A stretch of 2,081 nt of DNA from Escherichia phage ECO95 1-6-1. The stretch lies in sequence record OR845563.1, one strand, 5' to 3'. This document shows positions 1,980-2,039 of this stretch, one piece after another (within the stretch, counting starts at the first letter, position 1; every line of letters begins with the position of its first letter). The translations under genes were made by a program, and so were the position numbers. The notes beneath the pieces were generated by a model. It did no database searches and had not been told where the DNA came from. It was given only the letters and a program-made list of their open reading frames with translations.

Positions 1980-2039
1980 TTCCTCCACTTAACACATTCA
2001 GAAGGACACTTTCCTAACTGTTCTTGTGTTGTGGAGGAA
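1980..2039 (-). promoter_or_regulatory. Inverted repeat flanking the alpA 5' leader: TTCCTCCAC-(TT)-AACAC (1980..1995) pairs with GTGTTGTGGAGGAA (2026..2039); candidate SD-sequestering stem-loop or operator
   Basis: Seen directly: 9 bp plus 5 bp of complementarity with a 2-nt bulge and a 30-nt loop. The proximal arm is the alpA Shine-Dalgarno itself (GGAGGAA on the minus strand). Possible -10-like hexamers (TAAGAT, TATCAA) lie further upstream near the window edge, so the promoter may be partly outside the window. Confidence 0.4.

Follow-up and report, generated by a model that had tools for sequence, protein, structure and literature searches.

A conserved leader hairpin that probably occludes the alpA Shine-Dalgarno sequence in enterobacterial PICI-like satellites, and its possible role as an insulator against read-through

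Leader structures in described elements and the alpA locus

Leader stems that bury the Shine-Dalgarno (SD) sequence and must open for translation are known from the lambda N leader and RNase III-processed hairpins, and from the ROSE and fourU thermometers. The thermometers use weak, mismatch-rich or U-rich pairing, and RNase III requires ~20 bp. In IS10 (Tn10), the transposase is reportedly shielded from external promoters by fold-back inhibition (Davis, Simons and Kleckner, 1985), and an equivalent is said to operate in IS50 (Tn5; Krebs and Reznikoff, 1986). Both elements carry a sequence complementary to the ribosome-binding site just upstream of the gene's own start, and only transcripts from outside contain it, fold and block translation. 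In IS200, a cis stem in tnpA buries a near-consensus SD and greatly reduces 30S binding, and a terminator acts against impinging transcription; this stem is part of the native mRNA and constitutive, and works alongside the antisense art200 RNA and Hfq (PMC4513863). [quoted passage not shown] SD-sequestering leaders and fold-back inhibition are textbook devices; in the literature searched, we found none described for PICI alpA, nor any described alpA leader structure, promoter or AlpA box.

We analyzed a 2,081-nt stretch of Escherichia phage ECO95 1-6-1 (OR845563.1), hereafter the window, in which all sizeable genes except one lie on the minus strand:

1693..1977, minus strand: alpA coding sequence (94 aa plus stop; from the ORF list; Pfam Phage_AlpA PF05930, E = 2.3e-10)
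1682..903, minus strand: KilAC/AntA antirepressor gene
585-779, plus strand: small ribbon-helix-helix (RHH) gene
451..182, minus strand: Icd-like ORF

A 98%-identical copy is found in E. coli ET670 (L001), where alpA is annotated as an AlpA family regulator and the gene order is integrase, DUF6387, alpA, antirepressor, Icd-like, small ORFs and DUF927 primase, followed by genes for the major capsid protein, protease, portal, head closure, connector and HNH. Together these match the gene set of a capsid-forming PICI (cf-PICI; 10.1101/2022.09.08.507074); the window covers the end nearest to int of such a capsid-forming, PICI-like satellite, and AlpA is the master activator of the satellite. Since the DUF6387 stop codon falls at ~2082-2084, just beyond the window end, positions 1978-2081 represent the entire 104-nt spacer before alpA. 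The AlpA N-terminus is conserved from residue 1 among homologues, which indicates that the alpA start codon and the SD are correctly placed. Among 5426 complete E. coli genomes, only 82 carried the 94-aa AlpA clade.

EcCICFT073 resembles this locus in having int and then alpA on the same strand, with an autoactivating AlpA and helper-induced transcription (PMC6092414). It differs in that its AlpA has 62 aa, is 49% identical over 57 residues and belongs to another clade. Its 360-nt alpA upstream region showed no significant SD-occluding fold (z = -0.23), so the hairpin described below is specific to the 94-aa AlpA clade.

Two further observations concern other parts of the window. Positions 1-30, where the contig ends, are a nearly homopolymeric run of C, in all likelihood a poly-G artefact of sequencing or assembly and not biology. 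On the plus strand, 818-846 hold a promoter-like TTGACC-17-TATGCT preceded by a TG, and a hairpin with a T-run that resembles a terminator comes next (877-896 and tail); an RNA of ~50 nt antisense to the antirepressor 3' end could be made from this site (818-905).

The SD-occluding hairpin and its conservation

The inverted repeat at 1980-2039 is real and well above chance, and its parts are as follows:

2026..2039, minus strand: distal (5') arm, UUCCUCCAC-AACAC (repeat search, fold and pairing conservation)
1996..2025, minus strand: inner hairpin (MFE and centroid; RNAalifold gives the same stems)
1980..1995, minus strand: proximal (3') arm, GUGUU-AA-GUGGAGGAA, which holds the SD (repeat, fold, alignment A1 columns 56-72)
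1980..1986, minus strand: SD GGAGGAA (core GGAGG 1986..1982), 4 nt before the ATG (read from the sequence)

A perfect 9-nt repeat has its arms at 1980-1988 (TTCCTCCAC) and 2031-2039 (GTGGAGGAA), 42 nt apart and 100% complementary. The alpA-sense (minus-strand) RNA reads UUCCUCCACAACAC (2039..2026), then, after the inner hairpin, GUGUUAAGUGGAGGAA (1995..1980) and GC-AUG, the alpA ATG being at 1977..1975. In the outer stem, UUCCUCCAC (2039..2031) pairs with GUGGAGGAA (1988..1980) and AACAC (2026-2030) with GUGUU, giving 14 bp interrupted by an AA bulge; these coordinates match the earlier note, which had placed the SD in the 3' arm of a 14-bp interrupted stem. The first 7-9 nt of the distal arm (within 2031-2039) constitute the anti-SD. 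The inner hairpin contains the pairs C2020-G1999, A2019-U2000, G2018-C2001, A2015-U2003, G2014-C2004, G2013-C2005 and A2012-U2006 with a loop from 2011 to 2007, and the long structure has about 22 stacked pairs.

Folding of 2045..1960 gave an MFE of -25.8 kcal/mol, compared with -14.4 +/- 2.65 kcal/mol for 200 dinucleotide shuffles (z = -4.29; 0/200 as good), and a 134-nt segment comprising the intergenic region and the first alpA codons gave -37.8 kcal/mol (z = -4.22). MFE and centroid structures alike have the SD paired, in agreement with the proposal that the leader can fold to occlude it. When the whole spacer is folded, GUAAGAUGAUGUA (2050-2062) also pairs with UACUCGUUUUAC (1953-1965, the first alpA codons) in the minus-strand RNA, forming an additional outer helix that encloses the AUG as well.

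Two familiar classes of structure were considered for the hairpin and set aside. An intrinsic terminator at 1980-2039 was rejected, the stem being followed by GCAUGUCAAAU with no U-tract and none being called there. An RNA thermometer of the ROSE or fourU kind was rejected on the CCUCC:GGAGG pairing and the stability of the long hairpin (-25.8 kcal/mol at 37 C); in contrast to the thermometers, the alpA leader stem is G-C rich. The short hairpin described below has an estimated energy of about -14 kcal/mol, taken from whole-leader fold energies of -15 to -18 kcal/mol.

A search with the AlpA protein as query yielded 124 loci (44 in species-representative genomes and 80 in viral contigs), and we compared the 130 nt before each alpA. 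An SD, GGAGG or a variant of it, is present in all homologous leaders, and the stem that occludes it occurs in two leader types. The long type is that of the window (17 distinct sequences, alignment A1), and the short type has the form GCCUCCAC-N13/14-GUGGAGGC-AAC-AUG (38 distinct sequences, alignment A2). The long type looks like the short type with an insert of ~30 nt that pairs with the former loop. The MFE structure buries the SD in nearly all leaders of relatives with identities as low as 63%.

Pairs were counted on structure-blind MAFFT alignments, with the 3' partner slid by 1-3 columns as a control. In the short type, 89.5% of cells form a standard pair compared with 42-47% in the slid controls, both sides have changed in 5 of the 8 pairs (16 cells), and in 500 shuffles neither the paired fraction, nor the number of double-change cells, nor the covariation score ever reached the observed value. 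In the long type, the corresponding fractions are 86.9% and 38-51%, with both-side changes in 5 of 22 pairs (11 cells); the pair at columns 25-58, within AACAC/GUGUU, is A-U in 11 sequences and G-C in 6. RNAalifold, run without a prior structure, recovered the same stems including the anti-SD:SD core. Compensatory variants are found across lineages, namely CCCCC/GGGGG (L033), CUGUUCUCC/GGAGACAG (L075 clade), GCUUUCUCUGU/ACAGAGAGAGC (L115), AUCCGCAU/AUGAGGAU (L003) and UGUCUCUGC/GCGGAGACA (L004). Since the pairing is kept by compensatory changes, the stem is under selection, and the covariation across homologous elements that the earlier note had suggested looking for is seen in both leader types. 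Sequence comparison thus shows selection for anti-SD:SD pairing throughout the 94-aa AlpA clade of enterobacterial PICI-like satellites, and we consider it highly probable that the element is a selected RNA hairpin occluding the alpA SD. The excess of G.U over A.C cells, tried as a test of RNA versus DNA, was only moderate in the short type (22 versus 9) and uninformative in the long type (12 versus 16, no excess), and we place no weight on it.

Rfam gave no match in the leader (1978-2081) even at E <= 10 and four chance-level matches elsewhere in the window. The pattern CAAGAACAGNNAGGAAA returned mostly chance matches and no new leader in viral contigs, and a stricter pattern returned 14 loci in metagenomes, a few of them new variants.

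Some lineages have no hairpin. In Xenorhabdus relatives, an intrinsic terminator lies ~15 nt before a free SD, and in Photorhabdus relatives and L012/L107, alpA overlaps an upstream alpA-like ORF (ATGTAATG). At Xenorhabdus and Arsenophonus loci (L022, L027-L032, L034, L036 and L038), alpA stands behind a second alpA-like ORF and an intrinsic terminator ending ~15 nt before the SD; a promoter would not fit into this spacing, so that these genes may be expressed through read-through of the terminator or by antitermination.

The predicted alpA promoter and insulation against read-through

Conservation upstream of the stem points to where alpA transcription may begin. Upstream segments (-45..-8) of the short type were clustered at 60% identity into 23 families, which were aligned gaplessly on the first C of CCUCCAC (index 0). 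These sequences are mosaic, with only two conserved blocks before the stem: T-30 (18/23) and G-29 (15/23) in one, and A-7 (18/23), A-5 (19/23), A-4 (17/23) and T-3 (19/23) in the other; G-1 (15/23) passes the cut-off too, but is the first base of the stem. A TG at -30 occurs in 12 of the 23 families against a background of 4.9%, and in no more than 4 families at any other position (binomial P = 1.7e-10; 1e-8 when corrected for 59 positions, and still 1e-6 after the two most similar family pairs are merged). The blocks can be written xTGcaa (-31..-26) and aAnAAT (-8..-3), are 17 nt apart, and the second ends 2 nt before the arm. This arrangement is consistent with canonical sigma-70 promoter geometry, in which the informative positions would be conserved and the spacer free to vary. 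If transcripts start 7-8 nt past the -10, their first base would be at index +4 to +6, inside CCAC, and the native short-type mRNA would begin ACAAAACG..., without the anti-SD. A position-weight-matrix scan for the -10 alone gave two competing registers, AnAAT and TAGCCT, and the -35 spacing settled the choice.

In the long type, an AATAyT block lies directly before the arm and a T is found at -28 (window 2065) in 13/13 families; the upstream conservation is weaker and the register less sharp than in the short type. By comparison with the short type, the window has the following candidates:

2063..2068, minus strand: candidate -35 GTATCA (weak, 3/6; 18-nt spacer), by analogy with the short-type xTGcaa block
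2039..2044, minus strand: candidate -10 CAATAT (weak, 4/6), at the same position as the short-type aAnAAT and the long-type AATAyT
2030..2034, minus strand: predicted alpA start zone, likeliest A2032, within the distal arm, from comparative promoter geometry (7-8 nt past the candidate -10)

The GTATCA-18-CAATAT of the window family has 7/12 consensus matches, and a consensus promoter scan of the window did not call these -10 and -35 candidates before alpA. In one long-type relative (L070), the best -10 (GATAAT) is sited so that the arm would be transcribed, a point against a start inside the arm. From the short-type geometry, we infer that the alpA promoter probably overlaps the distal arm, with the -10 at ~2044..2039 and the start at ~2032.

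Similarity to several E. coli islands ends at ~2043 (2043/2044), on the immediate upstream side of the candidate -10 and the distal arm. The hairpin and alpA move as one recombination module, the upstream gene and spacer being swapped.

A promoter in this position would separate two kinds of alpA RNA. Transcripts from the alpA promoter would start inside or after the anti-SD, leave the SD free and be translated, while read-through transcripts begun in int or cargo genes, which are co-oriented with alpA, would include the anti-SD, fold and load no ribosomes; the untranslated alpA RNA would also be open to Rho-dependent termination, and the downstream operon would be spared. The hairpin would then serve as an insulator, allowing int and cargo to be expressed with the self-activating AlpA off until the helper phage fires alpA's own promoter. 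We give an even chance to this full model, in which the anti-SD overlaps the alpA promoter and start and only int/cargo read-through transcripts are silenced.

The folding calculations are consistent with such a division. The full-length leaders fold significantly (z = -4.2 for the window and -3.2 for the short type), whereas leaders truncated at the predicted start do not (z = -0.86 and +0.16, respectively). The median SD opening energy is 13.8 kcal/mol for full and 6.7 kcal/mol for truncated leaders of the long type, and 10.9 and 6.0 kcal/mol for those of the short type. In silico, the SD of the shorter native transcript would be accessible; however, the predicted native leaders retain an SD opening cost of ~6 kcal/mol, which counts against the insulator model. 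In a long-type transcript from ~2032, the predicted 5'-terminal structure would consist of the inner hairpin and the AACACA/UGUGUU stem, with AAGUGGAGGAAGCAUG single-stranded.

The gene arrangement gives read-through an opportunity. At every locus, integrase and one highly variable ORF (216-363 aa), both co-oriented, lie upstream of the hairpin-bearing alpA, and a gap of 83-610 nt separates the end of the variable ORF from the alpA ATG at all loci examined, the smallest gaps leaving barely enough space for the inferred promoter. No minus-strand intrinsic terminator was found between int, DUF6387 and alpA in E. coli ET670 (L001). Judged by this arrangement and the lack of a terminator in L001, co-oriented transcription from upstream can enter the alpA leader, and we assume that int/cargo read-through does reach alpA. 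Since runaway replication is deleterious, a tight alpA off-state is needed, and a self-activating switch downstream of expressed genes needs insulation. Against the insulator model, L065 and the L103 family have an upstream terminator as well as the hairpin, and the anti-SD is degenerate in the L048 family and at the single loci L252 and L254, indicating that the arm is dispensable in some contexts.

The insulator model resembles IS10 and IS50 in that the anti-SD would lie at the gene's own (here predicted) start and the protected product triggers mobilisation of the element. It differs in that the protected gene is a satellite transcriptional activator rather than a transposase, in that the element itself, through its int and cargo genes, supplies the 'outside' transcripts and, for IS10, in that no conserved antisense RNA equivalent to RNA-OUT was found here. 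IS200 shares the SD-sequestering stem, and some alpA relatives likewise have an upstream terminator; in contrast to the IS200 stem, which lies inside the native transcript, the alpA anti-SD is probably outside it.

Also on the plus strand, the alpA start codon is overlapped by a perfect TTGACA (1971-1976), with a 16-nt spacer between it and CACATT (1993-1998). A possible antisense promoter across the leader, like IS10 pOUT, could lie here; conservation of its -10, CACATT, does not extend to the short-leader type.

The slot between int and alpA (L001 10995-11801, to the right of window position 2081, and its equivalents in L002-L125) always holds a single ORF. This ORF is DUF6387 in the window family, and six others tested had no significant Pfam match (one sub-threshold DUF3950), so that Pfam identified only DUF6387 among the variable upstream ORFs and gave no sign of defence genes or regulators. 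Several dissimilar slot ORFs share the N-terminal motif (I/L)P..Y(C/Y)..ERA..LLGC...DL(I/L).(L/F)G, and each slot-ORF family has its own intergenic repeats beside the predicted alpA -35 (TGGAAT/ATTCCA; CTGGAAAATCCAG). The slot ORF and its repeats could be a variable regulator with operators, or the slot could be a cargo hotspot.

Alternative readings and what the hairpin may mean

The earlier note had also allowed that the palindrome might be a DNA operator, to which a dimeric protein (AlpA, the neighboring RHH protein or a host factor) would bind to control the alpA promoter. Such a site would fit the overlap of the distal arm with the predicted promoter and start and the 22-bp distance, about two helical turns, between the arm centres of the short type, and concerted half-site changes such as CCCCC/GGGGG could also come from protein co-evolution. 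However, identical arms are spaced 14 nt apart in the short type and 42 nt in the long type, the distal arm is repositioned in some lineages, and some pair through G.U only; the Klebsiella leader, shared by 17 loci, keeps only a G.U-rich UCUUCGC/GUGGAGG or a shifted-arm UCCACU/AGUGGA pairing, which is not a DNA palindrome. The proximal-arm sequence is, moreover, already accounted for as the SD. Because the spacing varies, the Klebsiella pairing is G.U-rich or shifted, and the nested inner stems covary, as is typical of RNA, we read the element as RNA and regard an operator as very improbable. Scarcely credible is a hairpin with no function, either a chance palindrome or the intrinsic terminator of the upstream gene. 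The SD is purine-rich, CCUCC-like strings are common and the hairpin does sit after the upstream gene, but the fold (z = -4.3, 0/200 shuffles as good) and its cross-genus conservation with compensatory changes speak against chance, and no U-tract follows the stem (GGAAGCAUG) and no terminator is called there.

The remaining alternatives accept the RNA and place the whole hairpin in the native mRNA. According to the earlier note, alpA mRNA would carry the distal arm and be unlocked by an sRNA, by RNase processing or by coupling to upstream translation; the SD-occluding RNA has stood, and the presence of the distal arm in native mRNA is doubtful. With the predicted start inside the arm, its SD-complementary half (2033-2039) would be missing from native transcripts, close to the situation in which the note expected its own reading to fail. 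Translational coupling is unlikely because, at all loci examined, the distance from the end of the upstream ORF is 83 nt or more to the ATG and 50 nt or more to the arm. In its general form, this reading supposes a promoter further upstream and a trans-acting opener of the induced mRNA, which could be a helper-phage or host sRNA, an RNA-binding protein, or RNase III/RNase E processing of the long stem. The hairpin is indeed strong and conserved, bases that do not depend on pairing are conserved in loop and leader (for example AGAA(A)CAG beside the SD arm in both types, which could be a binding site), the ~22 stacked pairs of the long type suffice for RNase III, and the window family has no convincing -35. 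On the other hand, the short-type -35/-10 geometry puts the start inside the arm, the 8-bp short-type stem falls short of the RNase III length, no Rfam family matches, and no partner RNA was found in the window, where a candidate small RNA opener (853-906, plus strand) had leader complementarity matched by 130 of 300 shuffles. The unidentified helper-phage inducer of Gram-negative PICIs leaves a place for an opener, but helper induction was measured with transcriptional fusions, so that a transcriptional input exists, albeit for a different AlpA clade (PMC6092414). We consider a regulated switch of this kind unlikely, though the most serious of the alternatives, and decidedly unlikely its specific form in which the hairpin receives the helper-phage signal, the induced full-structure alpA mRNA being opened by a phage RNA-binding protein, an sRNA or a phage-triggered RNase; were that so, satellite induction would be gated at translation, a mode undescribed for any PICI. 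Alternatively, the native mRNA would hold the hairpin with no opener at all, each transcript would yield little AlpA, and only a large burst would cross the autoactivation threshold. A precedent is IS200 tnpA, where just such a 5'UTR stem sequesters the SD and a terminator guards against transcription from outside (PMC4513863). AlpA activates its own expression, and terminator and hairpin are combined in L065 and the L103 family. The promoter argument applies here as well, the predicted start being inside the arm. De Smit and van Duin are said to have related hairpin stability to translation, and opening energies of 11-19 kcal/mol would lower translation by many orders of magnitude, which is hard to square with rapid induction; we hold this constitutive damping to be quite unlikely.

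The hairpin is a well-supported and testable element at the point from which this satellite family is controlled. If the regulated switch were true, the hairpin would be an entry point to the helper-phage inducer. If the anti-SD is embedded in the promoter, it would mark the true 5' boundary of the alpA regulatory module, the recombination breakpoints lying just upstream, and in engineered PICI vectors a promoter placed upstream of alpA would be silently insulated. In Gram-negative PICIs, int, cargo and the self-activating alpA are co-oriented, and the literature searched gave no explanation of how the switch stays off during expression of its upstream neighbors; a promoter-embedded anti-SD would give a simple, testable answer to how alpA stays off.
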